DNA of 64,000 nt from Patescibacteria group bacterium (GTDB lineage: Bacteria; Patescibacteriota; Patescibacteriia; Magasanikbacterales; GWA2-37-8): contig JBAZUP010000001.1 of assembly GCA_041661385.1 (NCBI GenBank), positions 289,709 through 353,708 of the forward strand. Direction: 5' to 3'. A model generated the notes under the pieces. That model was not told where the DNA came from. It did no database searches and worked only from the letters and a program-made list of their open reading frames with translations. The translations under genes and the position numbers were made by a program. Within the stretch, counting starts at the first letter, position 1. The number at the start of each line of letters is the position of its first letter. Of the stretch, positions 20,569 to 63,421 are shown in pieces.

Positions 20569-21354
20569 CTAGAAGAAGCCACCGGTGACTGTCTCCAGCT
20601 TGTCGTTCGTCCAGGTCTGGAAAGGCCGGGACGGACTGGCATGCTGCCAACCGGTATAGGTACCGGTGGTACCATTCGGCACCGTGAAGGAGCCGGAGGC
20701 TTCAGGACAGCAGATCTGCGAATTCGCAGACACCGACTGACTGTCGACGTTCTTCTTGCCGGCGATGAACTGGTCCCAGCAAGTGAAGACGCTGTTCGTC
20801 GTGGGCGTGGCGCAAAGGATGTACTGCGCCGTTCCGACAACGCAAACGTTGTCGATGCACACGTGACCAGACGTGCAATCCGGGGTGCAGAAGTTTCGAG
20901 CGTAACACACGCCCGAGACGCAGTTCTGGCCCGTGGGACACGGGTTCGAGCTGCTGCACACGTTGTTGTTCGGAGGCGTGGTGCCCGGAGTCTTGCAGAC
21001 TCCGCTGTCGCAGACCAGATTCTTGGTCCCGTCGCAGTCGGCGCTGAAGACGCACTTCTTCCCGACCTCGCAGAGGTTGGGAGGCTCTGCCATCCGGCAA
21101 GACCATCCGCAGTCGACATCCGACTCCGAATAGTCCTGAACGCCGTTGTTGCATCGGGCGACGTCCCAGGTGGTGCAGATGCCCTTCAGCTCCCGCTCGT
21201 TGCCGCAGACCAGGCCGTCGGCGCACTCGTTGCTGTTCAGGGCGCAGGAATCGTGGAACTTCTTCTTCCCGTGCTCGTAGTCCTTCCCGCAGCCGGGGAG
21301 GAGGGTGAACATCGCCACGATGGCGATGGTGAACAACTGCGCGAACTTCTTCAT
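20569..21354 (-). CDS. cysteine-rich secreted lipoprotein (high-GC island)
   Basis: Lipobox LLPGC; repeated C-x-D-G-x-C / CxxGxxC units; GC ~62%. Confidence 0.55.
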   Translation of the reverse strand: MKKFAQLFTIAIVAMFTLLPGCGKDYEHGKKKFHDSCALNSNECADGLVCGNERELKGICTTWDVARCNNGVQDYSESDVDCGWSCRMAEPPNLCEVGKKCVFSADCDGTKNLVCDSGVCKTPGTTPPNNNVCSSSNPCPTGQNCVSGVCYARNFCTPDCTSGHVCIDNVCVVGTAQYILCATPTTNSVFTCWDQFIAGKKNVDSQSVSANSQICCPEASGSFTVPNGTTGTYTGWQHASPSRPFQTWTNDKLETVTGGFF

Positions 21355-21545
21355 GATCGCTCCTTCTCTCCCCTTTAACGGGTGAGATTTTTCCGAGCTT
21401 CCATTATGAAAACCCGGTAATTCTTTTTCCTATCTGAAAATAAATTTCTTTATTCCCAGAAGTGGAGGTCCTTGCGCCTCTTGACGCAAGGACCGATCCG
21501 ATCGATCTTTTAACGCTCGAAAGCGTTAGAAAATACGATTTTGCC

Positions 21546-22607: not shown

Positions 22608-22623
22608 CTTTTCTCCTCTCCCT

Positions 22624-23310
22624 TTACGGGGTGGTAGTGGTTTCGGGTTGCTTCTGCTTCGAACCGAGACGATTCTTCAATTCCTCTGCAGAGGTGATCG
22701 CGGTCTTTTCCGAGATCTTGATCTGCTCTGCAAGGCAAGCTGCGTTCCAGGCGTTTCGCTCGAGAGCGAATTCATTCGCCTGATCAGCGATCTTCTTCTT
22801 GAGCTCGGCCGTAGCAAAGCTGGATGCCGCACCCATGTCGGGGAACACAGATCTCCCCATCATGAAAGCAAAGACGGTGCAGATGGTACAGACAACCACC
22901 CAAACCCACGGGAACTTCTTCGGCTTCGCATGATGAGACCGAGATGGCTCGTGATGAAAGTGAGCCGGCTCGTCGTGTGGAACGGCGGAGTGATCCGTAT
23001 GAAAACTGGGCTCTTCCTGATGAGTCGTTGGCACTTCCTCACAAAGAGACGTATTGTAAATAACGACAATATCGTCCCAAGCCTTCAGCGCCTTCTGCTT
23101 CATCACCTTGTGATGGTCCTCGGGAATATGAGGGCGTCGCAGGCTATCGAGCGCCGATGTGAGCTCGTTGAAGTGTTCCAGCATCTCCTGCTGATTGACT
23201 TTTTTCGTGAGGAAATCAAGCACGGACTTGACACTTTCGTGATTGGTTTCAATGCCGATCTCTCGGAGCTGGACCAAAAGCGCTGAAGTATATTCGCCTG
23301 GCTTCATCAT
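22624..23310 (-). CDS. single-pass membrane protein (anti-sigma-factor-like topology), hypothetical
   Basis: Cytoplasmic N-domain, His-rich linker, one TM (WVWVVVCTICTVFAFMMG), periplasmic C-domain. Confidence 0.4.
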   Translation of the reverse strand: MMKPGEYTSALLVQLREIGIETNHESVKSVLDFLTKKVNQQEMLEHFNELTSALDSLRRPHIPEDHHKVMKQKALKAWDDIVVIYNTSLCEEVPTTHQEEPSFHTDHSAVPHDEPAHFHHEPSRSHHAKPKKFPWVWVVVCTICTVFAFMMGRSVFPDMGAASSFATAELKKKIADQANEFALERNAWNAACLAEQIKISEKTAITSAEELKNRLGSKQKQPETTTTP

Positions 23311-23340
23311 TTGCTTTCTCCCTAGTTGGTAAAATGAGCT

Positions 23341-23361
23341 CTGTCCTGTAAAACAGGACAG
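23341..23361. promoter_or_regulatory. perfect 9-bp inverted repeat CTGTCCTGT-aaa-ACAGGACAG upstream of 22624..23310 gene
   Basis: Seen directly; lies 30-50 nt upstream of the minus-strand start codon; candidate operator. Confidence 0.3.
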
Positions 23362-23546
23362 TCCAGATATACTAAACAGATTTCTGGAAAGAAAATCGGC
23401 TCAAAGCTGGTTTTCTTCCCTAAAACCTGTACTAAAGTGGCTTGCCTATCCAAAAATACCTTATCACACAGAACTGCTCAGCTTATCATAAATTAGCGAA
23501 AATGTCAAGAGCTTTTTGCAGTCTTTACTCCTATATAGCACAAACT

Positions 23547-26180: not shown

Positions 26181-26639
26181 ATGACAAATTTTGCTGAAAA
26201 TAAAAAAGCCCGGTTTGATTATGAAATTCTTGATACTTATCAAGCGGGAATTTCCCTTACTGGACAAGAAGTTAAGTCCGTTCGTGCCGGTCAAATTAGC
26301 CTGACCGGTACTTTTATTACTTTTCATAATGGAAAAGCAATTTTAACCAACGCCCACATCTCGCCTTACAAGTTTGCGGGACCACTCCCCGATTACGAAC
26401 CTACCCGCAGTCGCACCCTCCTCCTACACAAGCGGGAAATCAATTATCTACGCGGTAAATCCGAGGAACAAGGCTTGACAATAGTGCCTCTTCGGGTGTA
26501 TAGTAGTAACCGTCTTATAAAGCTAGAAATAGCAGTAGCTCGCGGAAAGCACCGTTTTGACAAGAGAGAAACGATAAAAAAACGTGATTTAAACCGAGAG
26601 CTAAAAAAAGATTCAAAATACGGGAGTGACCGGCTTTGA
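26181..26639 (+). CDS. smpB: SsrA-binding protein SmpB
   Basis: ARFDYEILDTYQAGISLTGQEVKSVRAG N-terminus and basic C-tail. Confidence 0.9.
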   Translation: MTNFAENKKARFDYEILDTYQAGISLTGQEVKSVRAGQISLTGTFITFHNGKAILTNAHISPYKFAGPLPDYEPTRSRTLLLHKREINYLRGKSEEQGLTIVPLRVYSSNRLIKLEIAVARGKHRFDKRETIKKRDLNRELKKDSKYGSDRL

Positions 26640-27011
26640 CAGGGAACGTTTAATTCACTTGCCTACCGAGGTGGCCTCCATAGCCTCGTAAATACCTGGG
26701 GGCGACATAATAAGTGCAAACTTGTTATCAAAAGTAAAGGCATCTGTAGCTAACGCTTTCAGCACCTTTGCTCCGGCAATGGCCTAAGGGCCGTCGCCCA
26801 TCATCCGCGCCGGGACCCGACCAGTGCGAAATGGTGTCACTATCCGGGTGTAGTCTATTAGCGGCGGAATGACCGCTAACTGACGAAATACTTCAAACTA
26901 ACCTGTTTCACTTTCGCTTTCTTACGAGAGACAGGCGAAACAACAAGAAAGCTATGTAGGTAGATGGTGCGTTAAGCATCTTCTGGACGCGAGTTCAATT
27001 CTCGCCACTTC
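26622..27011 (+). ncRNA. ssrA: tmRNA (ssrA), 5' end overlapping last ~18 nt of smpB
   Basis: 5' GGGAGUGACCGGCUUUGACAGGGA matches tmRNA consensus GGGGNUG....GGNUUCGACGGG; 3' T-arm GCGAG-TTCAATT-CTCGC then CACTTCC+A pairs 7/7 (one GU) with 5' GGGAGTG; candidate tag ORF ending ...APAMA-TAA at 26786. Confidence 0.7.
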
Positions 27012-27024
27012 CACAAGAAAAATT

Positions 27025-28325: not shown

Positions 28326-28343
28326 CTTTGCACAATTCACCTG

Positions 28344-28419
28344 GGTCGGTAGTTCAACTGGTTAGAGCACTGCCCTGTCACGGCAGAAGTTGCGGGTTCG
28401 AGTCCCGTCCGACCCGCCA
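28344..28419 (+). tRNA. tRNA-Asp (GTC), CCA encoded
   Basis: Cloverleaf folded by hand: acceptor GGGTCGG/CCGACCC, anticodon loop CTGTCAC, T-loop TTCGAGT. Confidence 0.9.
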
Positions 28420-37469: not shown

Positions 37470-38258
37470 CTAATACCTGACCAACCGCAAATACCAGCTA
37501 ATAATTTCGTTACCCCAAAGCAGAACCACAAATGTCCCAATCGATAAAAAAGTTCCAAACGGAATGGCCGAAGACATTTCTTTTTTCTTCAAAGCAATCA
37601 ACGCTAAACTAAAAACCGCACCAAAAATATAACTGATAAATAACGCCGCGAGCCCCGCTTGCCACCCCAGCCAAAAACCCATCATAGCACCAAGCATTAT
37701 ATCTCCCCCGCCGATCCATTTACCTTTTGAAACCAAAAACTGAAACAGAAAAAAACCGCCGCAAATTAACGCGCCAAAAACTAAATTATACGGGTCGTAT
37801 ACTAAGTATTTTATATTTATAAACAACCCGACAGTAGAACCGAGTAGAATTACACTCGGTAAAATGAGTTGATATTTTGCGTCGTAAACAAACACTACAA
37901 TAAGCAGAGCGGAAAAAAATAGATCGCGAAACGATTGAATAGCAGAAAGATTGAAGTCAACCGAATGTCCAACAACCAAGGTAAAAATTACACCGGTAGC
38001 AAGCTCCACTAAAAAATAAGATTTCGGAATCGGCTTTCCACAAGTACGGCATTTACCTTTTAAAAATAAAAAACTAAATAAAGGAATATTTTCAAACCAA
38101 CTAAGTTTTCGTTCGCAATGAACACACATACTGCGCCCGCCAAAACAATACTTTTTCTCATGTATTCTCCACATCCACGAATTCAAATAACTACCAAGCA
38201 AAAGGCCTAAAACAAAAATAAACGAATAAACTACCGGCGAATAAATATCAATAAACAT
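37470..38258 (-). CDS. pilD: type IV prepilin peptidase (A24 family)
   Basis: N-terminal Zn-binding CxxC...CxxC, DUF/peptidase A24 TM core. Confidence 0.8.
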   Translation of the reverse strand: MFIDIYSPVVYSFIFVLGLLLGSYLNSWMWRIHEKKYCFGGRSMCVHCERKLSWFENIPLFSFLFLKGKCRTCGKPIPKSYFLVELATGVIFTLVVGHSVDFNLSAIQSFRDLFFSALLIVVFVYDAKYQLILPSVILLGSTVGLFINIKYLVYDPYNLVFGALICGGFFLFQFLVSKGKWIGGGDIMLGAMMGFWLGWQAGLAALFISYIFGAVFSLALIALKKKEMSSAIPFGTFLSIGTFVVLLWGNEIISWYLRLVRY

Positions 38259-38347
38259 AGGAATAATTTGGTGATATTATAGCACAATTTACCTAAAACA
38301 AAACCCCCCGCTTTTTGTAGCGGGGGGTCAACCTTTCGAAAAGTTGA

Positions 38348-38812
38348 TTAGTCGGTAATTCCTGATTGCGATAATGTAACTCCACCAGACAAGCCATTAA
38401 CTGTACCTTCCAATGTGGCGGTGACAGTGTATGTGCTGGAAGCTGCATTATAGGTATAAACGAGAGCTCCAGTATCATTTGGATCGCCTGGAACGCTACC
38501 CATATAAGCGTTAGCACAACCTGTTGCGTGCCAACCGGCGTTATCTAAACAAGCATAGTTGCCTGTTGCTGTAGTCGCTGGGCTTCGCAGAGGTCCTAAC
38601 ACTACGTTTGAACCTGCTGGGTAAGCATTTTGATCGGTGTAGTATAATTCCAAAGCAGTTTGAATTTGCTTAAGATCTGACATGCGTTTAGCGTCTCTAG
38701 CCTTCACACGAGCGTTGCCGAGGGCAACTACCGCGAGAGTGGACAAAAGACCGATAATGGCGATGACGACCAAAAGTTCGATCAAAGTAAAACCTTTCTT
38801 ATTCATTTTCAT
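38348..38812 (-). CDS. type IV pilin-like protein (prepilin N-methylation motif)
   Basis: [19 protein letters not shown] class III signal peptide; start MKMNKK preceded by GGAGGTGA RBS (ORF track extends to 38902). Confidence 0.75.
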
Positions 38813-38852
38813 ATTGTCACCTCCCTTCCAAAATTTGTATTCTTCATATTTT

Positions 38853-39323
38853 TTATGGGGAAATTCCAGAACCGATTCCTGAAGGCGAAAGATGTATCGC
38901 ACCCGACAAACCGTTTACCTGACCTTCAAGTGAAGCTGTAACATTAAATGAGCTTGAAGCCGCCGTGTAAGTATAAACCAAGCTGCCGCTATCATTTGGG
39001 TCGGCTGGCACCACTCCCAAATAAGGATCTGTACAAGCAGTTACGACATGAAAACCGGAATGATCTAAACAAGCATAGGACCCAGTCGCTGTTCCTCCGG
39101 CCTTTGCTGTTCCCAAAATAATTCCATTTCCAACCGGGTAAGCATTTTGATCACCATAATATAGTTCCAGGGCGGTTTGGATTTGTTTTAAATCCGACAT
39201 TCGTTTGGCATCCCGAGCTTTCAATCGCGCATTACCCATTGCAACGGTTATAATTGTTGATAATAAACCAATGATAGCGATTACGACTAGAAGTTCGATC
39301 AAAGTAAAGCCGCGTCTATTCAT
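38853..39323 (-). CDS. type IV pilin-like protein, tandem paralog
   Basis: [19 protein letters not shown]; first ~60 aa nearly identical to neighbour. Confidence 0.8.
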
Positions 39324-39375
39324 AATTTATTTTAAATACTTTTTTCCAAAAACATTATAACACATTTCTTGACTA

Positions 39376-39756
39376 CTAGATATGCAGAACCTTTTTAACT
39401 TTTTCAACAATTTCTGAAGGTTTAAAATGCGCCTTTATAAGATAATCAACCGCACCCGCTTCGAGACCCTTATCAACATCGTCTTTTTGTCCAAGATTAG
39501 TAAGAAGGATAACCGGAATATTTTTTGTTTCAGCATCCTCTTTTAGTTGAGCCAAAACTGAAAACCCATCTCGCTTTGGCAATAAAATATCGAGCAGGAC
39601 GATGTCCGGCTTCTTCTTTTTGGCTTCAGCGAGCACCTTTTCTCCATTATCCACCGGCGTCACTTTAAAACCTTCCATTTCAAACTTTTTTTGATAAATA
39701 CTGGAAAGAAAAATATCATCTTCTACCAGCAAAACATTAATAGTCTTTTTATCCAT
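39376..39756 (-). CDS. single-domain response regulator (CheY-like receiver)
   Basis: LLVEDD...phospho-acceptor D in VLLDILLP..DG; T and K residues conserved; start MDKK at 39756. Confidence 0.75.
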   Translation of the reverse strand: MDKKTINVLLVEDDIFLSSIYQKKFEMEGFKVTPVDNGEKVLAEAKKKKPDIVLLDILLPKRDGFSVLAQLKEDAETKNIPVILLTNLGQKDDVDKGLEAGAVDYLIKAHFKPSEIVEKVKKVLHI

Positions 39757-39773
39757 ATTTATAATATTATAGA

Positions 39774-40952
39774 TTATAACACATTCCGAAGTGCGAGACC
39801 AATCGAAACCGCGAGGCGCGGCGCAATTGTGCGGAGAGCAGGTTTTAAACCCTCTTGATAAACCACTCGCCCCCACGGATCACCTACATAACATTTAATA
39901 TTAAATTTTTCGCTAATTTTTTCGGCCAAATAAGGGAAAAAAGCTGAACCGCCGGAAAGAATAATTTTTTCAGGTTTTTTACCGCGATTGTTACTCTGCC
40001 GAGTATACAGCTCAAGACTGTATTCGATTTCTTTAATGATTGGATCAATAACCTGAGAAAATAAAGTTAAAAATTCTTCTTTTCCTAAAGTATGATTTTC
40101 TTTTACATCAAGAATATGGCTGAACAAATCCTTTTTTACCCGGTTAATCATACTCATATCGATACCCAAAATTTTCGCGAGAATCTGGTTGATTCTTTCA
40201 CCGCCAAGCTCAATACTATGATGAGTAATTGGGAAAGTCTGTTCGACAATAAAAAAATTAGTGCGCTCAGCGCCAATATCAATGAGCATGGCAGTAGCAG
40301 TGTCACGACCAATGAGCGCTCTAGAAAGAGCGATTGATTCTGGTTCAAGAGATTCAAGTTGTAGACCGGCTTCTTTAAATACTTCCGTATAAAAAACCAC
40401 CAGCGCCTTTGGGGCGGCGTTTACCAAAACTCTTTGTTCATGATAAGTATCATCGGTTCCTCCGGGGAAAATTTCATGCTCAAGAGCCATTTGTTCAAGC
40501 GGATAAGGTAAAAGTTTTTTTACTTCGGCATTTAAAATCCGGTCAAATTCTTCTTTTTTTACTTTTGGCATCGTAACAACGGCATGAAAAACCGAAGATA
40601 CCGGCAAACTGGCGACTGCGATTTTACTTTGTGTTTTCGCTTCGGCGCAAACCGTGCGAAGAAGTTTACCAAAAGTCTTAACCTGCTGTTGATCAATTTG
40701 AAAAAATGATTGTTGTTTGGTATTTTCGTCCGAGGAAAGGTTGTTTGCGTAAGCGGCAGAAAAATCTGATTTAAGTTCAGTCTTGGCTAGAAGCCGATGA
40801 ATTTCCTGCGGCTGGCGAGTAAAACCATAGGTAAATAAAACCGGACGATTTTTTTCTTTTTTCAATTCTACAATCTTAATTCCACCGGCGCCAATGTCCA
40901 CTCCGATGTATGCGTCTGGTTTCTTGAAAAACATATGAGATAAGTATACCAA
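39774..40952 (-). CDS. pilM: type IV pilus assembly protein PilM (actin-like ATPase)
   Basis: GVDIGAGGIKIVEL actin/HSP70 fold N-terminus. Confidence 0.7.
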   Translation of the reverse strand: MVYLSHMFFKKPDAYIGVDIGAGGIKIVELKKEKNRPVLFTYGFTRQPQEIHRLLAKTELKSDFSAAYANNLSSDENTKQQSFFQIDQQQVKTFGKLLRTVCAEAKTQSKIAVASLPVSSVFHAVVTMPKVKKEEFDRILNAEVKKLLPYPLEQMALEHEIFPGGTDDTYHEQRVLVNAAPKALVVFYTEVFKEAGLQLESLEPESIALSRALIGRDTATAMLIDIGAERTNFFIVEQTFPITHHSIELGGERINQILAKILGIDMSMINRVKKDLFSHILDVKENHTLGKEEFLTLFSQVIDPIIKEIEYSLELYTRQSNNRGKKPEKIILSGGSAFFPYLAEKISEKFNIKCYVGDPWGRVVYQEGLKPALRTIAPRLAVSIGLALRNVL

Positions 40953-44435: not shown

Positions 44436-44936
44436 GTGCTATACTATTCTTGTATGGTAGATTTAAAAAAAGAACAAAACCCGATAATAAATAAAGAAAA
44501 ATACCAATCTTTGGAAGCGGATTTTAGTGCCGGTGAAAAAGGTGAAAATATTTCGGAAAAAATAGAAAAAGAAAGTGAAGTAAAAACTGATACAGAAATT
44601 CAACACAAACAACCGCTCCATCATCGTCCGGTCAGCCATGTTTTGCCACCGCTTCGCGACCCGGTCGCTCAAAAAATAGAAAAAATCCTAGAAGAAAATG
44701 TCGGCGAAGCTTATAGCCGGCTCTCCCCCATCGCTAAAGAAGAATTTAAAATTAAAGGTGAAATAACCGCCAAAAAAATTGCCGAACTACTTAGCTCAAC
44801 CCATGTCAAAGTAAAAAAAGTGTTCCAGCTTATTATGGAATGGCTTAAAATGCTGCCCGGAATCAATCGCTTTTTCCTTGAACAAGAAGCAAAAATAAAA
44901 ACCGACCGTATCTTGGCACTTCACAAGAGAAAATAA
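44436..44936 (+). CDS. hypothetical protein (likely start MVDLKK at 44454), operonic with ATPase
   Basis: ORF; 8-nt gap to next gene. Confidence 0.35.
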   Translation: MLYYSCMVDLKKEQNPIINKEKYQSLEADFSAGEKGENISEKIEKESEVKTDTEIQHKQPLHHRPVSHVLPPLRDPVAQKIEKILEENVGEAYSRLSPIAKEEFKIKGEITAKKIAELLSSTHVKVKKVFQLIMEWLKMLPGINRFFLEQEAKIKTDRILALHKRK

Positions 44937-44943
44937 ACACCAT

Positions 44944-47493
44944 ATGAACTTTGGAACCATTTCTTCCAATACTATTCTGGCATCCCTACTCGGGGACCAG
45001 ATTTTTTTTAATATTTTACTTTTCATTGCCGGAATTATTTTAATTTTGGCCAGTATTCAAATCTTGCGGGCCATTTTTCACGCCCGCGGGCAAACTGGCA
45101 AAGCTTTTCATAAAACAATTTTACTTATTCGGGTTCCAAAAGAAAAACGATCTGATTCTCAGTCGCACAGCAGTGATGACAACCTCGGACAAATTCGCGA
45201 ACAAATTGGTGTCGCCGACACTCTTTTTTCGGCGGTAGCCGGACTAAAACCAGAACACGGTTTTCTAACTTGGCTACGCGGCCGATCGGATAATTTTGCT
45301 TTTGAAATCGTTACCAAGAAAAACACCATTTCTTTCTACGTCGCGGTCCCGGAGCGTCTTACCGACCTTATCAAACAACAAATCCACGCTCAATACCCTC
45401 ACGCTGAAATTTCTAATGAACCAGATTATAATATTTTTCGCCCCGAAAGCCACATTGTCGGCGCGCATCTTTGGTTTAAATATAAATCGGTTTTTCCTTT
45501 TCGTACCTACAAAAAAACTGAAAGCGACCCCTTGGTTGCGATTCTAAACCCACTCAGTAAAATTGGTGAAAATGAAGGAGCAATAATTCAATACATTGTT
45601 CGCCCGGCCGACAATTCTTGGCGCCAAGAAGGAGCGCGCCTCATTCGTGAAATAAAAGAAGGGCATAAATTTGAATCCATCATGGGTCGTGGTTGGCTCG
45701 GAAATTTTTTGCATGAATTTAGCAAATTTTCATCCACCACAAAAAATAATAATTCAAAAAATGGCCAACCGGAAAAATACCAACTAACCCAAATGGAAGA
45801 AGAAATGATAAAAAACATGGAAGATAAAATTAGCCATGGTGGTTTACAAATTTCGGTGCGAATTATAAGTTCGGCCGCAACCAAAGAAACTGCGCAGTTA
45901 AATCTTGAAAACATTCTTAACTCCTTCAGCCAATATAATATTTATCGATACGGTAATTCATTTGGCGCCGCCGTTCCAAAAAAACCCGGAGAAATAATCA
46001 GTGCTTCCATTTTCCGTTCCTTTGATGAGAAACAAAATTTTATCGCTTCCACCGAGGAAATGGCAAGCTTCTGGCACCCGCCCACAGCTTCTACTGAAAC
46101 CCCGCATATCAACTGGCTGGGCGCACGCAAAGCCCCTCCCCCAACCAATATGCCAACCGAAGGAATTACCCTTGGCCGGGCAGTTTATCGCGGTGAAGAA
46201 ACAATTGTAAAAATGAAGCGCGCCGACCGACGCCGACATCTATATACACTTGGTCGCTCCGGTAGCGGTAAATCTGTTTTTATCCAAAATCTTGCCGTTC
46301 AAGATATCCAAAATGGCGAAGGAGTTTGTGTTATTGATCCGCACGGTGATTTTGTCGAATATGTATTGCAACATGTGCCAAAAGAACGAGTCGATGATGT
46401 AATTTATTTTAACCCGGCTGATACCGAACGCCCAATTGGACTTAACATGCTTGAAGTAAAAACCGAAGAACAGAAAGATTTTGCAACCCAAGAAATGATC
46501 GCCATTTTTTATAAAATGGTTACTGACCCATCCATGATCGGCCCGATGTTTGAACACAACATGCGCAATGTCATGCTGACTCTCATGTCCGATATGGAAC
46601 ACCCCGGCACCATTGCCGAAATTCCGCGCATGTTCACCGATGAAACTTTTGTAAAAAAATATTTAAAAACTTTGAAAGACCCGGTTGTCCGATCGTTCTG
46701 GGAAAAAGAGATGGCCAAAACTTCAGACTTCCACAAATCTGAAATGCTTGGTTATCTAATTTCAAAAGTCGGTCGCTTTGTTGAAAACGAAATGATCCGC
46801 AACATCATCGGCCAATCCCGTTCCGGTTTTAATTTCCGAGAAGTCATGGATAAGAAAAAAATCTTGTTAGTTAACCTCTCCAAAGGTTTAGTCGGAGAAA
46901 TTAATGCCAATCTGCTTGGCATGATTATCGTTTCCAAACTTCAAATGGCCGCTCTCGAAAGAGCCTCTCTTCCCGAAGAACAACGTAATGATTTTTTCCT
47001 ATACATCGATGAGTTTCAAAACTTTATTACCGACTCAATTGCGACAATTTTATCAGAAGCGCGCAAATATCGGCTTGAACTTATCATTGCCAATCAATAT
47101 CTTAACCAGCTAGTCGATAACAAAGGCAGTAAGGCAGTGCGCGATTCAGTACTTGCGAATGCCGGCACGGTAGTAGCATTCCGCATCGGCTCAGAAGACG
47201 CTGAAGTGCTTTCAAAGGAGTTTGCCCCAGTCTTTGGCGCCTACGATTTAGTTAATGTAGAACAATACACCGCTTATACCAAGATGCTTATTGACAATAC
47301 GGCCGCAAGGCCGTTTAATATGATGACATATCCGCCAAAACCTGGAAACAAAGAACTGGCCGCTGCTATAAAAGAACTTTCCCGACTTAAATACGGCAGG
47401 CCAAAAGAACTGGTAGAAGAAGAAATAATGGAACGCTCACAACTTGGCTCAAGTACAGGAATTTCGGCCGGCGTTAGCGAAGCGTCTCTATAA
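44944..47493 (+). CDS. membrane-anchored P-loop NTPase (VirD4/TraD coupling-protein or HerA/DUF87-like) with large N-terminal extracytoplasmic domain
   Basis: N-terminal TM; Walker A LGRSGSGKS then VIDPHGDF; Walker B region FLYIDEFQNF; paralog of 58749..60155 N-domain. Confidence 0.55.
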   Translation: MNFGTISSNTILASLLGDQIFFNILLFIAGIILILASIQILRAIFHARGQTGKAFHKTILLIRVPKEKRSDSQSHSSDDNLGQIREQIGVADTLFSAVAGLKPEHGFLTWLRGRSDNFAFEIVTKKNTISFYVAVPERLTDLIKQQIHAQYPHAEISNEPDYNIFRPESHIVGAHLWFKYKSVFPFRTYKKTESDPLVAILNPLSKIGENEGAIIQYIVRPADNSWRQEGARLIREIKEGHKFESIMGRGWLGNFLHEFSKFSSTTKNNNSKNGQPEKYQLTQMEEEMIKNMEDKISHGGLQISVRIISSAATKETAQLNLENILNSFSQYNIYRYGNSFGAAVPKKPGEIISASIFRSFDEKQNFIASTEEMASFWHPPTASTETPHINWLGARKAPPPTNMPTEGITLGRAVYRGEETIVKMKRADRRRHLYTLGRSGSGKSVFIQNLAVQDIQNGEGVCVIDPHGDFVEYVLQHVPKERVDDVIYFNPADTERPIGLNMLEVKTEEQKDFATQEMIAIFYKMVTDPSMIGPMFEHNMRNVMLTLMSDMEHPGTIAEIPRMFTDETFVKKYLKTLKDPVVRSFWEKEMAKTSDFHKSEMLGYLISKVGRFVENEMIRNIIGQSRSGFNFREVMDKKKILLVNLSKGLVGEINANLLGMIIVSKLQMAALERASLPEEQRNDFFLYIDEFQNFITDSIATILSEARKYRLELIIANQYLNQLVDNKGSKAVRDSVLANAGTVVAFRIGSEDAEVLSKEFAPVFGAYDLVNVEQYTAYTKMLIDNTAARPFNMMTYPPKPGNKELAAAIKELSRLKYGRPKELVEEEIMERSQLGSSTGISAGVSEASL

Positions 47494-48078: not shown

Positions 48079-49686
48079 ATGCCAACACTATACCGAAAAT
48101 ACCGTCCATCTGTTTTCTCCGATGTCATCGGTCAGGATACAATTACTCAAACTATTCAAAATGAAATTTCCTCCGATCGACTTTCTCATGCCTATCTTTT
48201 TTCTGGTCCGCGCGGAGTTGGTAAAACCACACTTGCAAGACTGCTCGCAAAATCTGTCAGCTGCGAAAAACGAAAAAAAGGAACCTTCGAACCCTGCAAC
48301 GAATGCCAAGCCTGCGAACAAATTAATAATGGCCGCCACATTGATATTATTGAAATTGATGCCGCTTCTCAAACCGGTGTCGATAATGTCCGCGAAAATA
48401 TTATTGAAAACGCCGGCATTATGCCGACGGTACTAAAACACAAAATTTTTATAATCGATGAAGTGCACATGCTTTCGACTTCGGCTTTCAACGCACTTCT
48501 AAAAACTCTTGAAGAACCGCCGGCTCATGTTATTTTCATTTTAGCGACCACCGAATTGCATAAAATTCCTGCGACAGTAATTTCCCGCTGTGAAAGATTT
48601 GTTTTCAAAAAAATTCCTTTCGATAAAATGCTCGCCCGACTTAAAAAAATCTGCGGCGATGAAAAGGTCAAAGTAGAAAAAGAAGTTCTAGAGCGAATTG
48701 TTCGAAAAAGCGACGGCGGCTTACGCGATGCCGAAAGTTTGCTCGGCCAAATCCTTTCATTAAATCTAAAAGAAATTTCGGTTGAAGACATTCAAATGGT
48801 TTTGCCGCTTTCGTCCACCGAAAATTTGGTTGAATATCTTCAAAATATAACTGCGGGTGCGCCAGGAAAAGCAATAACCTTGGTAAACAAAATGGTTGAA
48901 GAAGGTGTTGATTTAAATCAGTTTGCCCACGACTTGCTTGAGCTTTTGCGCGCCTCATTACTATTATCTCTAAATACCGACAAGTCTTTGATTAATACCG
49001 ATTTCAATGATGAAACTATTAAAGAATTAAAAAAAATCAGTTCAGCAATTGGTGAAAAAAGAATTGTTTTGATTATGGACTTAACTCTGAAACGCAAGGC
49101 GGATATAAAATTATCACCCCTTCCGCAATTACCGCTTGAGTTGCTTGCAGTTGAAATTTACGATTTAATTTCTTCACCTGGGAATTTGGATAATCCGAAA
49201 CAATCAGAACCTCACGTCGAAAATATCAAGAAAGAAACTGTTACAAACAAGCCTGAGCCGGATTTGATCGTTAAAAAAATCGACGCGCCGGATAAAAGCG
49301 CAATTTCACAAATTACCAACACTATAAAGCAAGCAATTTCTCATATTGCCGACTCAAATATTACTACCACAGTAGAAATGGTGCGTGAAAAATGGAAAAC
49401 CGTAGTTGATAAAGCCTCGGTGACCGTTCCATCACTGAATTTTATACTCGCATCATGTACAATCAGTGAAATAAACGGAAATACAGTTCGAGTGGCTGTT
49501 CCTTTTTCAATTCACAAAGATCGTTTAGAAACCACAAAAAATCGCCAGTTACTAGAAGAGTGCATGCAAAGTGTTTTTTCAGAAAAAATCCGGTTATCTT
49601 TTTACGTTTCAGAAGTAGTAAATAATAATAAAGATTCTGAGGTCTCAAATTTGGCCGCGGAATTTGGCGGCGAAATCGTTAACTGA
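48079..49686 (+). CDS. dnaX: DNA polymerase III subunit gamma/tau
   Basis: GPRGVGKTT Walker A, DEVHML, Zn module CNECQAC, SRC motif. Confidence 0.9.
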   Translation: MPTLYRKYRPSVFSDVIGQDTITQTIQNEISSDRLSHAYLFSGPRGVGKTTLARLLAKSVSCEKRKKGTFEPCNECQACEQINNGRHIDIIEIDAASQTGVDNVRENIIENAGIMPTVLKHKIFIIDEVHMLSTSAFNALLKTLEEPPAHVIFILATTELHKIPATVISRCERFVFKKIPFDKMLARLKKICGDEKVKVEKEVLERIVRKSDGGLRDAESLLGQILSLNLKEISVEDIQMVLPLSSTENLVEYLQNITAGAPGKAITLVNKMVEEGVDLNQFAHDLLELLRASLLLSLNTDKSLINTDFNDETIKELKKISSAIGEKRIVLIMDLTLKRKADIKLSPLPQLPLELLAVEIYDLISSPGNLDNPKQSEPHVENIKKETVTNKPEPDLIVKKIDAPDKSAISQITNTIKQAISHIADSNITTTVEMVREKWKTVVDKASVTVPSLNFILASCTISEINGNTVRVAVPFSIHKDRLETTKNRQLLEECMQSVFSEKIRLSFYVSEVVNNNKDSEVSNLAAEFGGEIVN

Positions 49687-49693
49687 TACATTT

Positions 49694-50518
49694 ATGAAAT
49701 ATATCGCCAGCTTGGCCGTATTTTTTTTACTAATTCCAACTCTATCTCACGCAGCAAGCGTTGAGAAAATTAGCCTGCCGGTTCCGTTTCTTTGGGAAAT
49801 CCCCGATGGAGTTTGGGTTGCGCCATGGAGCGGCGCTTGTGAGGAAGCCAGCATTATCGCCGTTGAAAATTTTTATCTTAAAAAGCCAAAAGCGATAATA
49901 AAAAAAGTTGAAGCAAAAAATCAGATGCTGCCTTTGTTTAGTATCGAAACTAAAATTTTTGGATACAATAGTGATACTAACGCCGCTGAAAACCTAAAAT
50001 TAATTAACGATTACACTTCTTTTGACGCAAAAATTATCGATAACCCTACACTTGAAGAAATAAAAGACGAACTTCGGGCCGGACGTCCGGTTATTTCCCT
50101 ACACTATGGCTACGACCTAAAAAATCCCCGCCATCGCTTCCGCCGTGGCGGATCTTCTTATCATGTGATGGCAATTGTTGGTTTTGATGATGCCAAAGGA
50201 GAGTTCTTGGCAAATGATTCTGAACTACCGGACGGCATTGACTTTCACTATAAATATGCTACAATCATGGACACTCTTCATGATTTTGACCACAAAACTA
50301 AACATGCCGATGGACCACCGCGAGTATTGTTTACCAAGCCAAAAACCATCGTAAAAGCTAACGGGTCAAATAAAATTTTTCTTTTGCGAGATAATAAAAA
50401 ATATTATATTTCCAATCCGGCAGTTTTTAAAAACCACCGCTGGAGTTGGAGTCTCGTAAAAACAGTAGACAAATCAGTTTTAAGCAATTTGGAAAGCGGC
50501 AGCTCCATAAACAATTAA
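49694..50518 (+). CDS. secreted C39-like (papain-fold) cysteine peptidase family protein
   Basis: Signal peptide; WSGACEEASI Cys motif and SYHVMAIVGFDD His motif as in Peptidase_C39_2. Confidence 0.45.
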   Translation: MKYIASLAVFFLLIPTLSHAASVEKISLPVPFLWEIPDGVWVAPWSGACEEASIIAVENFYLKKPKAIIKKVEAKNQMLPLFSIETKIFGYNSDTNAAENLKLINDYTSFDAKIIDNPTLEEIKDELRAGRPVISLHYGYDLKNPRHRFRRGGSSYHVMAIVGFDDAKGEFLANDSELPDGIDFHYKYATIMDTLHDFDHKTKHADGPPRVLFTKPKTIVKANGSNKIFLLRDNKKYYISNPAVFKNHRWSWSLVKTVDKSVLSNLESGSSINN

Positions 50519-50835
50519 ACTCCGAGATCGCCCGCCTGCAACGCTTTGCGTAGCAATGCGGGCAGGTCTAACGGCATATATGTTTTACACTTACGTTCTT
50601 AAAAGCCAAAAAGATAACGAATTGTATATTGGATGGACCGATGACTTAAAAAGTAGAATAAAAAAACACAATGATGGCTTGGTAGAATCTACAAAAAATC
50701 GGAAGCCTTTAATATTGGTTTATTATGAAGCTTGTTTAAATAAAGATGCGGCAATAGCAAGGGAAAAATCGCTCAAAACTGGCTTCGGCAGAGCATATTT
50801 AAAAAATAGATTGAACGACAAACACTCCGAGATCG
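50519..50835. repeat. 12-bp direct repeat ACTCCGAGATCG (50519-50530 and 50824-50835) flanking GIY-YIG gene; second copy is the 5' end of tRNA-Gln
   Basis: Seen directly. Confidence 0.7.
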
Positions 50836-50840
50836 TCTAA
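50580..50840 (+). CDS. stand-alone GIY-YIG nuclease domain protein
   Basis: FYTYVL (GIY) ... LYIGWT (YIG) ... R, E, N catalytic positions; start MFYTY at 50580; overlaps tRNA-Gln 5' end by 15 nt. Confidence 0.7.
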   Translation: MFYTYVLKSQKDNELYIGWTDDLKSRIKKHNDGLVESTKNRKPLILVYYEACLNKDAAIAREKSLKTGFGRAYLKNRLNDKHSEIV

Positions 50841-50896
50841 TGGCAGGACAACGGACTCTGAATCCGTTTATCTTGGTTCGAATCCAAGTCTCGGAA
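50826..50896 (+). tRNA. tRNA-Gln (CTG)
   Basis: Acceptor TCCGAGA/TCTCGGA, anticodon stem ACGGA/TCCGT, loop CTCTGAA, T-loop TTCGAAT; no encoded CCA. Confidence 0.8.
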
Positions 50897-50916
50897 CATA
50901 TAATTTAACACACATA

Positions 50917-58736: not shown

Positions 58737-58750
58737 AGTCGGGATTTTTT
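58723..58750. terminator. bidirectional terminator AAATCCCGAC-ataaa-GTCGGGATTTTTT
   Basis: 10-bp perfect stem. Confidence 0.55.
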
Positions 58751-60155
58751 AACCATACATTATTTCTTCGGGAGGTTTTACCTCTTCTTCGTGCTGCTTT
58801 TTTTCTCCAAAACCGATTGGTTTTAACGGATTCTCCATCATTTCAACCGGCAGACCCGAAGGCGGTTCACTGCGTTTGGCTCCGGCTTTGTGGAGAAGCG
58901 GCGTTTTCACGAACGGCAATGGGAAGTGCCACAGGGTCGCTAATTCTTCTATATTTAAGACATACCCGTCAGTTTTCCCCCACTTCATTTTGCGATCGCG
59001 GTAAGCCTTCATAAAGCTCGTTTTCATCACATTACTCTTCACATGAGATGAGTCATAGTGGGCATGAGTAGCACCGGCAGGCACAATCGCATTATGGTTT
59101 TGCATATGAAACTGGTTCATCGCGCCGGTAAAACCATCCAAACAGTGGCTGGGGTTAAACACTTCTTTGCGAGCGCCATATAAAACTCGCAATTTAGTTT
59201 TAAAACCAATTTTTGATAATTTATCTTCAATTGCTTCAACTGCCTTTTTTGTACCCGGTTCTAATACAACTTTTTCATCTTTAGCATGATCGTCGCCGTG
59301 AGCAACATCAAATTCCCAAGTAATAAGCGCCGAATGCACATCCTTGCCAAGCTGAGTCAAAAAACCATTAATAAAATTTAAGACCGGATTTCCGCCGCCA
59401 TGCCCATGCCCGCCGCCGCCAGTCATTAATTCTTTAGCGAGGGCAATCGCCTTTTCTTTCCAAGAACTATCAACCGGTTCAAGAATAATTTGCGCCCAAA
59501 GATTTTCACCATGACCTAGCCGCGTAAAATTTTCGAGAATGGCCGCCATCGGATCGCTAAACACCGCATCTTTACTCAGGCTATATTCAAACTCCGGATA
59601 AGTTCGAATTGGGTATGCGTCAGCTTTGGCTAATTTATATTCAACTCCCATAACATCATAATTTTCATCTGGGAATTTGTCCGGTAAATTTATTACATAA
59701 TCCTCTACTTCCGTAATTTCTGCCTCCGGATATTGCGCATAAATAGATGCTTCAACCAAATCACGAAATTCAACTTCTGTTCTAATTAAAAATTGTATAT
59801 AACCCTCGATACTAATAATTTCAATACTAAAATTTTTTTGCTTTCTTCCAACAATAAATTTATCTTCTATATTACTATGAATAAGCGAACCCGTAAGATG
59901 AGCAAAAATTTGTTCTACTGCTTTCGGTGTCTGCACAAATAACGGTGGCACATCAACCGCAAGCACCGCATATTTCCAGTGTGCGGTATATTTTCCAGCG
60001 CGATACCCTACCCACAAATCAACGGCAGATTTTAACAAATACGCTGAAATAAAAACCCAGCCGCCCAGCGCAAATACTACTGCCGCAGCTGTGGTTGGAG
60101 GCAATTCAAAAAACCATTGCCAAAAAGAAAAATCGATATTTATTCCTAAACCCAT
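58749..60155 (-). CDS. paralog of the N-terminal (non-ATPase) domain of the 44944..47493 NTPase; Gly/His-rich loop
   Basis: IYAQYPEAEITEVEDY~IHAQYPHAEISNEPDY; EELATLWHFP~EEMASFWHPP; no P-loop; N-terminal TM. Confidence 0.45.
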   Translation of the reverse strand: MGLGINIDFSFWQWFFELPPTTAAAVVFALGGWVFISAYLLKSAVDLWVGYRAGKYTAHWKYAVLAVDVPPLFVQTPKAVEQIFAHLTGSLIHSNIEDKFIVGRKQKNFSIEIISIEGYIQFLIRTEVEFRDLVEASIYAQYPEAEITEVEDYVINLPDKFPDENYDVMGVEYKLAKADAYPIRTYPEFEYSLSKDAVFSDPMAAILENFTRLGHGENLWAQIILEPVDSSWKEKAIALAKELMTGGGGHGHGGGNPVLNFINGFLTQLGKDVHSALITWEFDVAHGDDHAKDEKVVLEPGTKKAVEAIEDKLSKIGFKTKLRVLYGARKEVFNPSHCLDGFTGAMNQFHMQNHNAIVPAGATHAHYDSSHVKSNVMKTSFMKAYRDRKMKWGKTDGYVLNIEELATLWHFPLPFVKTPLLHKAGAKRSEPPSGLPVEMMENPLKPIGFGEKKQHEEEVKPPEEIMYG

Positions 60156-60161
60156 ATTAGT

Positions 60162-60341
60162 TTAGTGACCACCGTGTCCACCCGCATCAATAAGTCTAAA
60201 CATTATTCCATAGACAATAAAAGTGGCGAATGCGGTCCACCACCAGCCAAACCCGCCCGAAATATAACCGGCGACGTAGGCCATAAGGGTCACAAAAGTG
60301 GCTGAAAATGCCACCAAATGACGAACTGTTGAATCATTCAT
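60162..60341 (-). CDS. small 2-TM protein (59 aa, below ORF-track cutoff), operonic
   Basis: Manual translation MNDSTVRHLVAFSATFVTLMAYVAGYISGGFGWWWTAFATFIVYGIMFRLIDAGGHGGH. Confidence 0.3.
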   Translation of the reverse strand: MNDSTVRHLVAFSATFVTLMAYVAGYISGGFGWWWTAFATFIVYGIMFRLIDAGGHGGH

Positions 60342-60426
60342 AGATATTTATTAACATTGCTAGTATAACATAAATGGAGCCAAAAAAAAACCGTCGCCTT
60401 GCAGCAACGGTTTTGATATTAGATTG

Positions 60427-61345: not shown

Positions 61346-63421
61346 CTATAATTTTGATACTGGCTTACCGCCTAAGAAAAACAACCTAGTGCCGGTCGTA
61401 AATCGACCAAGCACAAAACGCATAATCGTTCGAGTAATGGTAACAGCTGTAAACAAACTCATGATTACGCCCGTACCGAGCACGATCGCAAAGCCTCTCA
61501 CGAAACCGGTTCCACCAAACCACGCGAGCACAAAGGCGCCAATAAGCGTAGTAACGTGACCATCCCGAATAGACGGCCAAGCTCTAATAAATGATTCTTC
61601 CATAGCCGAGCGTAATGGTTTACCAAGTTTTAATTCTTCTTTTAATCTTTCAAACACCAGCACGTTCGCATCTACCGCCATACCAATTGAAAGAATAAAA
61701 CCGGCGATACCAGAAAGAGTAAGAGTAACTCCCATGAGCTTAAAGATAGCGAGGTTCAATACCGCATATAAGAGCAGTGAAAAAACCGACAACAACCCTG
61801 GCAAGCGATAATAAGCAACCATGAAAATCATGACCGCAATGAGGCCCGCAATACCAGCTTTAAAGCTTTTCTGTAGCGAGTCGGCGCCAAGTGTCGCATC
61901 GACTTTTTGCTGACTAAGAAGCTCTACCGGCACTGGCAAAGCGCCAGAATTTAAACGCTGAGCCAATAATTTTGCATCCAAAATTGTAAAGCTACCGGAA
62001 ATGACAGCACTGCCGCCGGTAATCGCTTCATTGACCCGTGGAATACTAATTGGTTCGCCATCAAGAAATATGGCAACTTGTTTGCCGATATTACGACCGG
62101 TAATTTCACCAAATAATTTTGTACCCTCATCATTAAACTGTAAATTTACTTGCACCTGACCGGTCTGAGTATCCTGCGTTACTTCGGCACGCTTTAACTG
62201 TTTTCCGGAAAGTCCAGAAAATTTCCAAGATTCAGCCGGCGGCACGATATCAGATTTTTGTTTCAAGCCAAAATAAATACGAGATACGCTGTATTCTTTT
62301 GGCGCGTCTTCAGATTTTTTATAAATAAGATGATAACCAAACTCCGTTTCAACCGGACCGACAATCGAACCGACCGGCACATTAAATATCGCATCCTCAA
62401 AAGATTTTACCATTTGTCCGCTAGTAAAAGTTCCCAAATCTCCGCCAGTTGTTGCGGCGGCCGGCTCGGTAGAAAATCGTTTCGCATAATCAGTAAAGTT
62501 TTTAGCAGTTACTTCCTTTTTTAATTCTTCTATTCTTGCCTTCGCTTGCTCTTTAGTATAAGTAATAGCAGTATCGCAACTTTCAGCTCCCTTATAACAA
62601 ATCAAGATATGCTGAGCACCAACGCGTTTTGGACCATTTTGTTCAGCAAGTTTTTTTACGATACTATAGCCATCCGCGCTTTTAATTGCTGTTCTGCTTA
62701 CCGAACCAACTGCGGCAGTTTTTGCCCAATCATAAATCTCCGGATAAGCATCCCTTGAGATAAAGCCCATCGCACCGCTTTTTTGAGCAGTACTAGATGA
62801 AGCCTCTGAAAATTGATTGAGCGCTGTTTCGAAAGAAGTTCCATTTACGATTGACCTCAAAACATCCGAAGCTTTCTTTTGTTGAGCTGCATTAAAGAGG
62901 TCCATTGCTTTTTTCTCCGCTGCGGTTAAATCCCGCTCGGGGCTTTTATTTTCTTCTTTAAATTCCAAAATTGGTGTTTCACCGATCATTTTAATCGCCT
63001 GATTCACATCCGTAACACCCGGTAATTCTACTAAAATACGATAATCATTGCCGACTCGTGTCGTTTGCACCAAAGGTTCGCTAACTCCGAGACCACCTCG
63101 AACTCTTCGCTCGATTACATCTCTTACACCTTCTACAGCGCTCGCAACATCTCCGGCCGGAACCTGCTCAGTTTTAGTTTGATAAATTAAATGCGCTCCA
63201 CCCTGCAGATCAAGTCCTAAATTAAAACCTTTTTGAGGTAAGAGCGGCACCCCAAGATTCGCTTTTTTATTTACCCATTTTAAACCCTGGTTCGCGTAAC
63301 CTGGCACTACTACCAAGGTACAAAAGATCCCGAGTAAAACTATTCCTATCAACTTAGATCGAACGCTTCCGCGGGTGACTGCCGCCCCAGAAGTTCTTTG
63401 CTGTCTAGACTTTTGAGCCAT
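61346..63421 (-). CDS. secD: protein translocase subunit SecD with inserted tandem parvulin (PpiC-type PPIase) domains
   Basis: GLDLQGGAHL P1-head motif, 6 C-terminal TM; insertion aa ~165-368 contains GGDLGTFTSGQMVKSFEDAIF...GPVETEFGYHLIYK (canonical parvulin) preceded by a degenerate copy (GAMGFISRDAYPEIYDWA...DGYSIVKK). Confidence 0.85.
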   Translation of the reverse strand: MAQKSRQQRTSGAAVTRGSVRSKLIGIVLLGIFCTLVVVPGYANQGLKWVNKKANLGVPLLPQKGFNLGLDLQGGAHLIYQTKTEQVPAGDVASAVEGVRDVIERRVRGGLGVSEPLVQTTRVGNDYRILVELPGVTDVNQAIKMIGETPILEFKEENKSPERDLTAAEKKAMDLFNAAQQKKASDVLRSIVNGTSFETALNQFSEASSSTAQKSGAMGFISRDAYPEIYDWAKTAAVGSVSRTAIKSADGYSIVKKLAEQNGPKRVGAQHILICYKGAESCDTAITYTKEQAKARIEELKKEVTAKNFTDYAKRFSTEPAAATTGGDLGTFTSGQMVKSFEDAIFNVPVGSIVGPVETEFGYHLIYKKSEDAPKEYSVSRIYFGLKQKSDIVPPAESWKFSGLSGKQLKRAEVTQDTQTGQVQVNLQFNDEGTKLFGEITGRNIGKQVAIFLDGEPISIPRVNEAITGGSAVISGSFTILDAKLLAQRLNSGALPVPVELLSQQKVDATLGADSLQKSFKAGIAGLIAVMIFMVAYYRLPGLLSVFSLLLYAVLNLAIFKLMGVTLTLSGIAGFILSIGMAVDANVLVFERLKEELKLGKPLRSAMEESFIRAWPSIRDGHVTTLIGAFVLAWFGGTGFVRGFAIVLGTGVIMSLFTAVTITRTIMRFVLGRFTTGTRLFFLGGKPVSKL

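Follow-up and report, generated by a model that had tools for sequence, protein, structure and literature searches.

A putative VirD4-type coupling protein of Magasanikbacterales with a predicted VirB4-like N-terminal domain, and its ATPase-less paralog

Patescibacteria depend on host cells. Canonical type IV coupling proteins (T4CPs) of the VirD4 type, one of the ATPase families of type IV secretion systems (T4SSs), carry two transmembrane (TM) helices directly before the motor domain. VirD4 has a sister family, VirB4 (Guglielmini et al. 2013, PMC3548315), whose members consist of an N-terminal domain (NTD, residues 15-400) and a C-terminal domain (CTD, residues 400-823); in the R388 machine the NTD is wrapped by VirB3, mediates VirB4 dimers and binds the tails of VirB8 (PMC9259494). 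In Patescibacteria, 5,713 VirD4-type T4CP homologues have been reported from 2,918 of 3,035 genomes (Quinonero-Coronel et al. 2025, PMC12102498), and the most abundant T4SS component of the phylum is TrsD, a stand-alone, remote homolog of the N-terminal part of VirB4 (PMC12102498). In this study, we analysed a stretch of 64,000 nucleotides (hereafter the window) from a Patescibacteria group bacterium of the Magasanikbacterales (GenBank assembly GCA_041661385.1, contig JBAZUP010000001.1, positions 289,709 to 353,708), with emphasis on two of its genes. One encodes an 849-aa protein that joins a DUF8128 domain to a T4CP-type motor, and the other a 468-aa paralog of its N-terminal domain. Our analyses suggested that the former is no categorically new system; it is a widespread, unstudied T4CP variant with an additional domain predicted to resemble the VirB4 NTD.

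The 849-aa fusion protein and its upstream partner

The features of the fusion gene and of the open reading frame (ORF) before it are as follows (window positions, strand, description).

44944-47493, +, 849-aa DUF8128-T4CP fusion protein, with membrane anchor, predicted VirB4-NTD-like domain and VirD4/TrwB-type motor
44971-45084, +, aa 10-47, N-terminal hydrophobic segment, predicted membrane anchor (Kyte-Doolittle)
45100-46164, +, aa ~53-407, DUF8128 (PF26449) domain
46183-47283, +, aa ~414-780, T4CP-type P-loop motor
46252-46275, +, aa 437-444, GRSGSGKS (Walker A)
46330-46353, +, aa 463-470, VIDPHGDF
46465-46800, +, aa ~508-619, all-helical insert in the motor (AlphaFold2 model)
47002-47025, +, aa 687-694, YIDEFQNF (Walker B)
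44454-44936, +, upstream partner ORF of ~160 aa from ATG, with an alternative GTG start at 44436 (translation)

The domain order of the 849-aa protein is thus a TM segment, DUF8128 and a TrwB-like motor with a helical insert. A database protein 100% identical to it, from a Patescibacteria group bacterium, is named 'type IV secretion system DNA-binding domain-containing protein'. The closest named relatives of both window proteins belong to Magasanikbacteria, and identity among species is very high at 70-80%.

Profile searches placed the C-terminal half within the T4CP families. It scored 47.8 bits against TrwB_AAD_bind (PF10412; cut-off 20.5), covering profile positions 9-338 of 387, 43.7 bits against T4SS-DNA_transf (PF02534; cut-off 20.1) and 30.1 bits against PF12696 (TraG-D_C; cut-off 22), and the Pfam model DUF87 also exceeded its gathering cut-off. 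TrwB was the sole significant sequence match in the PDB (phmmer 1.5e-07; profile 2.6e-08), and the AlphaFold2 model showed only helices at aa 508-619, between Walker A and Walker B, as in the all-alpha insert of T4CPs (confidence 50-80 in this region). The VirB4-type, HerA and FtsK models matched the P-loop region only and stayed below their cut-offs. For VirB4-type profiles, P-loop_TraG reached 16.4 bits (cut-off 25.8) and TraC-F-type 19.8 (cut-off 567), AAA_10 and CagE_TrbE_VirB gave no match, and no VirB4 chain appeared among the PDB sequence matches of the 849-aa protein, though TrwK is present in the PDB. The cut-offs of the NCBIfam TraD equivalogs were missed as well (SXT_TraD, 59.9 bits vs 366; conj_TOL_TraD, 34.2 vs 647; TraD_Ftype, 26.3 vs 521). 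The sequence comparisons therefore assign the C-terminal half to a T4CP-family motor that is no ortholog of a characterised TraD. The original prediction had described a coupling-protein/HerA-type NTPase with these three motifs, all of which are present in the 849-aa ORF. Its coupling-protein part is borne out by the scores above; the HerA label is not, with HerA models at 15 bits against cut-offs of 800-970. It had also named a clean assignment to a conjugative TraD with typical partners as the outcome that would undo it, and what we found lies in between: a T4CP-like motor, yet not a canonical TraD in such company.

Several other assignments were considered. An identity as FtsK was rejected, as FtsK_SpoIIIE (PF01580) reached 16.3 bits (cut-off 24). 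Among the NCBIfam models, that of the archaeal DNA-translocating ATPase CedD matched the 849-aa protein weakly. The defence model mad8 of PADLOC matched the motor at 1e-20, and this assignment was rejected because the match is restricted to the motor and no other MADS gene lies nearby.

The N-terminal half carries DUF8128. PF26449 is listed for both window proteins in the precomputed Pfam annotation of 100%-identical database proteins, an annotation that comes without a score of our own; the local Pfam scan did not return the model. Each of the two proteins has one hydrophobic segment only, at its N-terminus. In the 849-aa protein this is the single stretch at aa 10-47 that the original prediction had also recognized, with no second segment above 1.6 anywhere in the Kyte-Doolittle scan, and AlphaFold2 drew a long helix over aa 19-54. 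The hydrophobic segment is followed by RAIFHARGQTGKAFHK, positively charged (R/H/K), marking the cytoplasmic side. Because no TM segment separates DUF8128 from the necessarily cytoplasmic ATPase, both lie on the same side of the membrane, and by this reading of the sequence the domain must be cytoplasmic. The large extracytoplasmic domain that had been proposed is thus contradicted by the uninterrupted path to the ATPase, by the basic residues after the anchor and by a predicted fold that matches the cytoplasmic NTD of VirB4.

The fold comes from structure prediction. AlphaFold2 modelled the paralog with a predicted local distance difference test score (pLDDT) of 66.7 and a predicted template modelling score of 0.60, and the full-length 849-aa protein with a mean pLDDT of 63, its N-domain mostly at 79-92 and the C-terminal half of the motor poor. 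Foldseek provided an independent comparison, in which all 12 matches with E <=0.001 were TrwK/VirB4 chains (probability 1.00, template modelling score ~0.35), followed by a chain of the ESX-3 complex. The structures matched by the paralog model included no ATPase-only entries (VirB4-CTD 4ag5, TrwB, Cagbeta, HerA), all of which were matched by the full-length model; the match is therefore to the N-terminal domain of TrwK, residues 15-400. On these models, DUF8128 has the fold of the VirB4 NTD. Compared with TrwK of R388, the NTD fold, the length and the domain order are alike; the motor, in contrast, is not VirB4-like in sequence, and DUF8128 shows no detectable sequence similarity to the VirB4 NTD. 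Its sequence profile gave no match in the PDB. The likeness to EccE of the mycobacterial ESX type VII systems is purely structural and much weaker, concerns a different secretion system and is accompanied by no evidence of common descent. Compared with canonical T4CPs, one hydrophobic segment and ~350 aa of DUF8128 stand where those proteins have their two helices. Taken together, we regard the structural and homology statements on these proteins as highly probable.

Upstream, the ~160-aa ORF stops 7 nt before the 849-aa gene starts. It combines an acidic N-terminal half, probably disordered, with a conserved helical C-terminal domain of ~95 aa, and its alignment consensus is ..RLSPiAkQEFKlKGE..KVKK..LPGiNxFFLEQEAKIKTD... 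In other Magasanikbacteria, the gene immediately before the fused one encodes an ortholog of 163-166 aa (in L001 the two overlap by 4 nt), and a ~165-aa ORF adjoined the fused gene wherever the upstream region was covered, in some genomes again overlapping it by 4 nt. No match was obtained in Pfam, NCBIfam, PADLOC or PHROG scans. The original prediction had drawn a single region at 44436-47493; the large ORF and its motifs are real, and the start at 44436 belongs to this separate upstream ORF, two genes having been merged.

The stand-alone paralog and the split form

The second DUF8128 gene lies further along the window, on the other strand.

58749-60155, -, 468-aa stand-alone DUF8128 paralog, without NTPase motifs
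60021-60104, -, aa ~18-45, N-terminal TM segment of the paralog
58839-59984, -, aa 58-439, DUF8128 domain of the paralog
59391-59420, -, aa 246-255, Gly/His-rich loop GGGGHGHGGG of the paralog
60162-60341, -, 59-aa micro-protein, predicted two-TM hairpin with a GWWW motif and the C-terminal Gly/His tail DAGGHGGH (translation)
60387-60414, -, terminator-like hairpin, 12-bp stem followed by a T-run (consensus scan)

The 468-aa protein is, by homology, an ATPase-less counterpart of the N-terminal ~350 aa of the 849-aa protein. BLASTP aligned the two N-domains over ~340 aa (E=1e-27, 24% identity), and HHalign of the subfamily profiles returned a probability of 100% (E=2e-40, 336 columns), so that the relationship first proposed from the sequence holds at the profile level, where a lack of similarity would have spoken against it. 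Local Pfam and NCBIfam scans of the paralog gave no match.

The 59-aa ORF precedes the paralog gene with a gap of 6 nt. In 79 of 80 species-level loci, the gene just before the paralog is a two-TM hairpin ORF of 53-60 aa, which confirms the small two-TM partner of the original prediction; the consensus is MNDTxxRH..GYxSGxxGWWWT..YG..Y..DAGGHGGGHH, and scans of Pfam, NCBIfam, PADLOC and PHROG gave no family match. The terminator-like hairpin is placed between the secF stop and the 59-aa ORF and sets the micro-protein and the paralog apart as their own predicted transcription unit. In orthologs, the Gly/His-rich loop (59391-59420) and the tail of the 59-aa protein (60162-60185) recur with variable length. 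These shared features may reflect metal binding or a common interaction. A 'VirB3-like' role of the 59-aa protein could be proposed by analogy only.

In other, more distant Patescibacteria, DUF8128 and the motor were found as separate genes. In loci of a Parcubacteria group bacterium (L084), a Paceibacterota bacterium (L085) and a Portnoybacteria bacterium (L086), a stand-alone DUF8128 gene has, downstream of it and on the same strand, a gene for a T4CP-type ATPase of 549-583 aa; a further locus (L082) has the matching gene order, but the scan did not include its ATPase gene, which the contig end truncates. The split-form ATPase has no DUF8128. It shares 44% identity with aa 415-833 of the 849-aa protein, and its C-terminal end is a CxxC-x17-CxxC treble-clef zinc finger (PF23477, zf_Tbcl_2). 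Its family is very large: every one of the 8,000 scored candidates was significant, and Portnoy-, Falkow- and Paceibacterota names were included. The stand-alone DUF8128 proteins share 31-42% identity with the window paralog vs 21-25% with the fused N-domain. Since these genes are closer to the paralog and are followed by an ATPase gene, the paralog would represent the N-terminal half of a split second system. These arrangements thus suggest two old paralogous systems, a fused type A and a split type B, which agrees with the published figure for Patescibacteria of roughly two T4CPs per genome (PMC12102498).

In Magasanikbacteria the type-B ATPase gene is not beside the paralog, and it is likewise unlinked in one Falkowbacteria contig. 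A tblastn search of the 64-kb window with the ATPase-only zinc-finger T4CP found the 849-aa gene only. As the ATPase half is not adjacent in this lineage, the paralog would use an ATPase encoded elsewhere or pair with the 849-aa protein; such pairing might take place through the NTD-like domain, the paralog serving as a non-catalytic scaffold.

The split loci have further features in common. A protein of 346-349 aa with Sigma70_r4 and HARE-HTH domains precedes the pair (L084 6840-11023; L085 2767-7695; L086 3540-7752). In L085 an additional 197-aa ORF separates the DUF8128 gene from that of the ATPase-only T4CP, and in L086 secDF lies upstream of the pair, as in the window.

Among described proteins, TrsD of the pGO1-type Gram-positive T4SS resembles the 468-aa paralog in being ATPase-less and made of a VirB4-NTD-like module. 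However, TrsD homologues mostly lie beside virB4 and the paralog beside secDF. The locus tags of six relatives were not in the supplementary files of PMC12102498.

Homologs on phages and plasmids, and the genomic setting

Each of the two window proteins has more than 2,600 close homologs, and the profile of the stand-alone DUF8128 paralog matched 3,125 clusters at 50% identity. A sequence-pattern scan (PKAVEQIF, WHFPLPFV) returned Magasanikbacteria-like genomes only and is no gauge of phylum-wide spread.

Homologs were also found on phages. The family phrog_5156 (function unknown) matches aa 114-832 of the 849-aa protein at 6e-92, and full-length homologs are encoded by Bacillus phage G (gp156), phage Nachito and SPO1 (gp27.4), that of phage G scoring E=1e-50 by tblastn and 3e-58 by BLASTP; identity is only 20-25% for gp156 and gp27.4. 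As in the 849-aa protein, gp156 and gp27.4 join DUF8128 to a motor, and small membrane-protein genes lie upstream of both. In phage G (L088, NC_023719.1 85009-99111), the order is gp153 (TrbL/VirB6-like), gp154 (a small TM protein), gp155 and gp156; gp155, directly beside gp156, is VirB4-like (P-loop_TraG, AAA_10), and a Replic_Relax protein, gp146, is encoded nearby. In SPO1 (L090, NC_011421.1 87879-99099), gp27.4 follows small membrane proteins and overlaps gp27.3, which is annotated 'replication initiation by nicking'; it has no companions besides these small membrane proteins and the nickase. In Nachito, small membrane-protein genes lie upstream as well, and the neighbourhood contains no annotated T4SS-type or nickase gene. 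No sequence similarity to the 59-aa or ~160-aa ORFs was seen in the small partners of the phage homologs. Bacillus phages G and SPO1 carry parts of a T4SS-like module.

On plasmids, 298 records match the 849-aa protein, 35 of them over at least 80% of its length, and 48 records match the N-domain alone. The hosts are Streptomyces, Embleya, Clostridium botulinum, C. sporogenes, Bacillus, Staphylococcus, Sulfolobus and haloarchaea. On pNATPE02 of Natrinema, the order is a pilin, a TrbL_3/VirB6-like protein, a 1102-aa ATPase, a 395-aa DUF8128 part and a 1003-aa T4CP; on a C. sporogenes plasmid, the homolog comes straight after a TrbC/VirB2 gene. In both phage G and the Natrinema plasmid, DUF8128 and the motor therefore have a VirB6/TrbL-like gene and another large ATPase gene as neighbours, the latter of the VirB4 type in phage G. 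The original prediction had suspected a lineage-specific system outside the standard secretion sets, a view that does not fit the occurrence of T4CP homologues in nearly every genome of the phylum and of the same design in phages and plasmids.

In the window, the 849-aa gene has pilD, pilin-like ORFs, pilM, cysS and corA upstream and dnaX together with a C39-like peptidase gene downstream, and the paralog is flanked by dus on one side and secD-secF on the other; the rest of the window holds housekeeping and envelope genes. The gene order among the housekeeping genes is kept in about 80 species-level genomes, and the synteny with dnaX extends across Magasanikbacteria.

Other observations concern the neighbouring genes. 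The C39-like peptidase ORF (284 aa, 49664-50518, +) overlaps the 3' end of dnaX by 23 nt, and in many relatives the conserved dnaX-C39 pair follows the fused T4CP gene. About 4 kb upstream of the 849-aa gene lies a type IV pilus gene group (37470-40952, -) that includes the prepilin peptidase PilD (37470-38258), three short unscanned ORFs (38348-39876) and PilM (39774-40952); in relatives the position of the short ORFs holds genes for a pilin-type N_methyl/T2SSG protein and a response regulator, and L003 and L004 show the group in the same order. SecD (691 aa, 61346-63421, -) contains matches to a PpiC-type peptidyl-prolyl isomerase (Rotamase) in two stretches between SecD_1st and P1-head, and the 996-aa SecDF fusion of a relative has the same PpiC-type insert; a foldase within a Sec accessory subunit is unusual. 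A block at 18400-23400 has 50-57% GC vs ~39% for the genome and encodes Cys/Gly/Thr-rich proteins (573, 261 and 353 aa) with lipoprotein- or signal-like N-termini and almost no Pfam match; they may be horizontally acquired or compositionally biased surface proteins. The window also contains a tmRNA gene (26622-27016, +; tag peptide ANLLSKVKASVANAFSTFAPAMA), tRNA-Asp (28343-28419) and tRNA-Gln (50826-50897). Many records of Magasanikbacteria-like metagenome-assembled genomes (L006, L011-L013 and others) bear the title 'uncultured Gammaproteobacteria bacterium'; in gene content and order they correspond to Magasanikbacteria, and the titles look like a deposit labelling artefact.

Function, alternatives and significance

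We propose that the 849-aa protein is a chromosomal VirD4-type T4CP subtype of Patescibacteria in which a VirB4-NTD-like DUF8128 replaces the two-helix membrane domain, and we regard this reading, with the mechanism that goes with it, as moderately probable. The motor would form a membrane-bound hexamer that recruits DNA or protein and pushes it, driven by ATP, across or to the cytoplasmic membrane, and it would probably feed a T4SS of the mating-pair-formation FATA-like type encoded elsewhere in Patescibacteria. By analogy with the VirB4 NTD, DUF8128 may form a membrane-proximal tier that binds small membrane subunits and pairs with other NTD-type modules, and the 468-aa paralog with its 59-aa partner would supply the N-terminal half of a second, split T4CP-like system. 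That the 849-aa protein acts together with a T4SS, a view drawn from the phage and plasmid homologs, seems to us an evenly balanced matter at best, with doubt slightly ahead.

A number of observations weigh against this proposal. Pfam scans of the window ORFs found no virB4, virB6, relaxase or other T4SS gene; relaxase-type and/or mating-pair-formation genes are, in contrast, present near the homologs of phage G and Natrinema, phage G and SPO1 having a Replic_Relax-type nicking protein and phage G also VirB6- and VirB4-like genes. The window neighbours are instead cysS, corA, dnaX, secDF, dus and folD, all housekeeping genes. In the phylum as a whole, only 148 of the 5,713 T4CPs lie near virB4, and the T4CP of Southlakia epibionticum is non-essential though T4SS genes are essential there (PMC12102498); for this essential T4SS, no recognisable coupling protein was described (Wang et al. 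2023, PMC10633639). On the structural side, a scan of all 27 members of our alignment A1 gave no hint of the VirB4 NTD Pfam family at E values up to 10, the models are of medium confidence (pLDDT 63-67) with the C-terminal half of the motor poor, and the Foldseek template modelling score is only ~0.35.

Several of these points would suit a T4CP-derived housekeeping motor that works independently of any T4SS and handles DNA at the membrane, in FtsK-like segregation or in uptake during transformation. Such a motor would be expected on the chromosome, in synteny with dnaX across Magasanikbacteria and conserved among species to the degree observed, and it would agree with a family that is near-universal and in more than 97% of cases far from virB4, with a T4CP dispensable where the T4SS is essential, and with relaxases absent from most Patescibacteria genomes (PMC12102498). 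The authors of that survey themselves leave room for exaptation of the T4CPs (PMC12102498). The zinc finger of the split-form ATPase and its Sigma70_r4 and HARE-HTH partner hint at nucleic-acid binding, and the weak CedD match points in the same direction. However, FtsK_SpoIIIE stays below its cut-off, and the published description of ComEC-dependent competence in Saccharibacteria invokes no need for this protein (PMC12857230). In addition, all contexts outside the candidate phyla radiation that we examined in detail are on mobile elements, with T4SS-type genes in phage G, Natrinema and Clostridium and a nickase in SPO1; we consider a housekeeping motor fairly unlikely, though not negligible. 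The protein could also be read as a divergent VirB4, an assembly or energising ATPase rather than a coupling protein. Its predicted NTD fold, length and domain order equal those of VirB4 (PMC9259494), the Clostridium homolog directly follows a TrbC/VirB2 gene, in the usual place of VirB3/VirB4, and weak cross-matches between VirB4 and VirD4 profiles are on record (PMC3548315). Nevertheless, only T4CP families pass their cut-offs, no VirB4 chain was found by PDB sequence comparison, a separate VirB4-like gp155 stands beside the phage G homolog, and a distinct, bona fide Patescibacteria VirB4 clade exists in 2,407 genomes besides the T4CPs (PMC12102498), which makes a divergent VirB4 quite improbable.

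The reading of the original prediction as a whole, in which a large extracytoplasmic domain belongs to an envelope or translocation system specific to the lineage and unrelated to standard secretion machineries, could draw on an N-domain that is unnamed in the curated local libraries, on two small partners with no known relatives and on the lack of T4SS genes in the window. Against the cytoplasmic topology, the VirB4-NTD fold, the spread outside the lineage and the fact that these proteins had already been described as T4CP homologues, it appears very improbable. Equally close to dismissal, and barely credible, is a remnant of an integrated plasmid, prophage or defence island: phrog_5156, the mad8 match and the phage and plasmid homologs would speak for it, but the GC content equals that of the surrounding genome (the deviating block lies at 18-24 kb instead), no integrase, relaxase or other MADS gene is nearby, mad8 covers the ATPase part only, the gene order is the same in about 80 species-level genomes, and the genes are a constant feature of the relatives.

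Returning to the proposed T4CP subtype, a more far-reaching version deserves mention as speculation that we consider distinctly unlikely. DUF8128-T4CPs could be a surviving intermediate between VirB4 and VirD4, the NTD copies a class of scaffolds, and the fused and split systems together a core exchange machinery of the whole phylum. If this were true, canonical coupling proteins would have arisen from a VirB4-like ancestor by losing the N-terminal domain; ATPase-less, membrane-anchored copies (the 468-aa paralog, TrsD and perhaps EccE) would dock translocation motors at the membrane; and the fused and split systems would exchange DNA or proteins with host cells.

In a literature search of incomplete coverage, we found no description of the VirB4-like N-domain of these T4CPs, of their fused and split forms or of their small partners, and no mention of DUF8128/PF26449 or SPO1 gp27.4. 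The models now give a predicted structural identity to a Pfam domain of previously unassigned function, one that also occurs in Clostridium botulinum plasmids, haloarchaeal megaplasmids, phage G and SPO1-type Bacillus phages, and they add a data point on the relation between the two T4SS ATPase families. For Patescibacteria, the results indicate that the ubiquitous 'orphan' T4CP homologues of the phylum bear a predicted VirB4-like docking domain and exist in fused and split forms, each with a conserved small partner. T4SS genes are essential in the one species of the phylum tested, in which a coupling protein is apparently lacking (PMC10633639, PMC12102498). The pairing of NTD-like domains with VirB4, TrsD or the paralog, the binding of the small TM partner, and the choice between DNA and protein as substrate may therefore open the missing coupling step of the Patescibacteria T4SS to testing.

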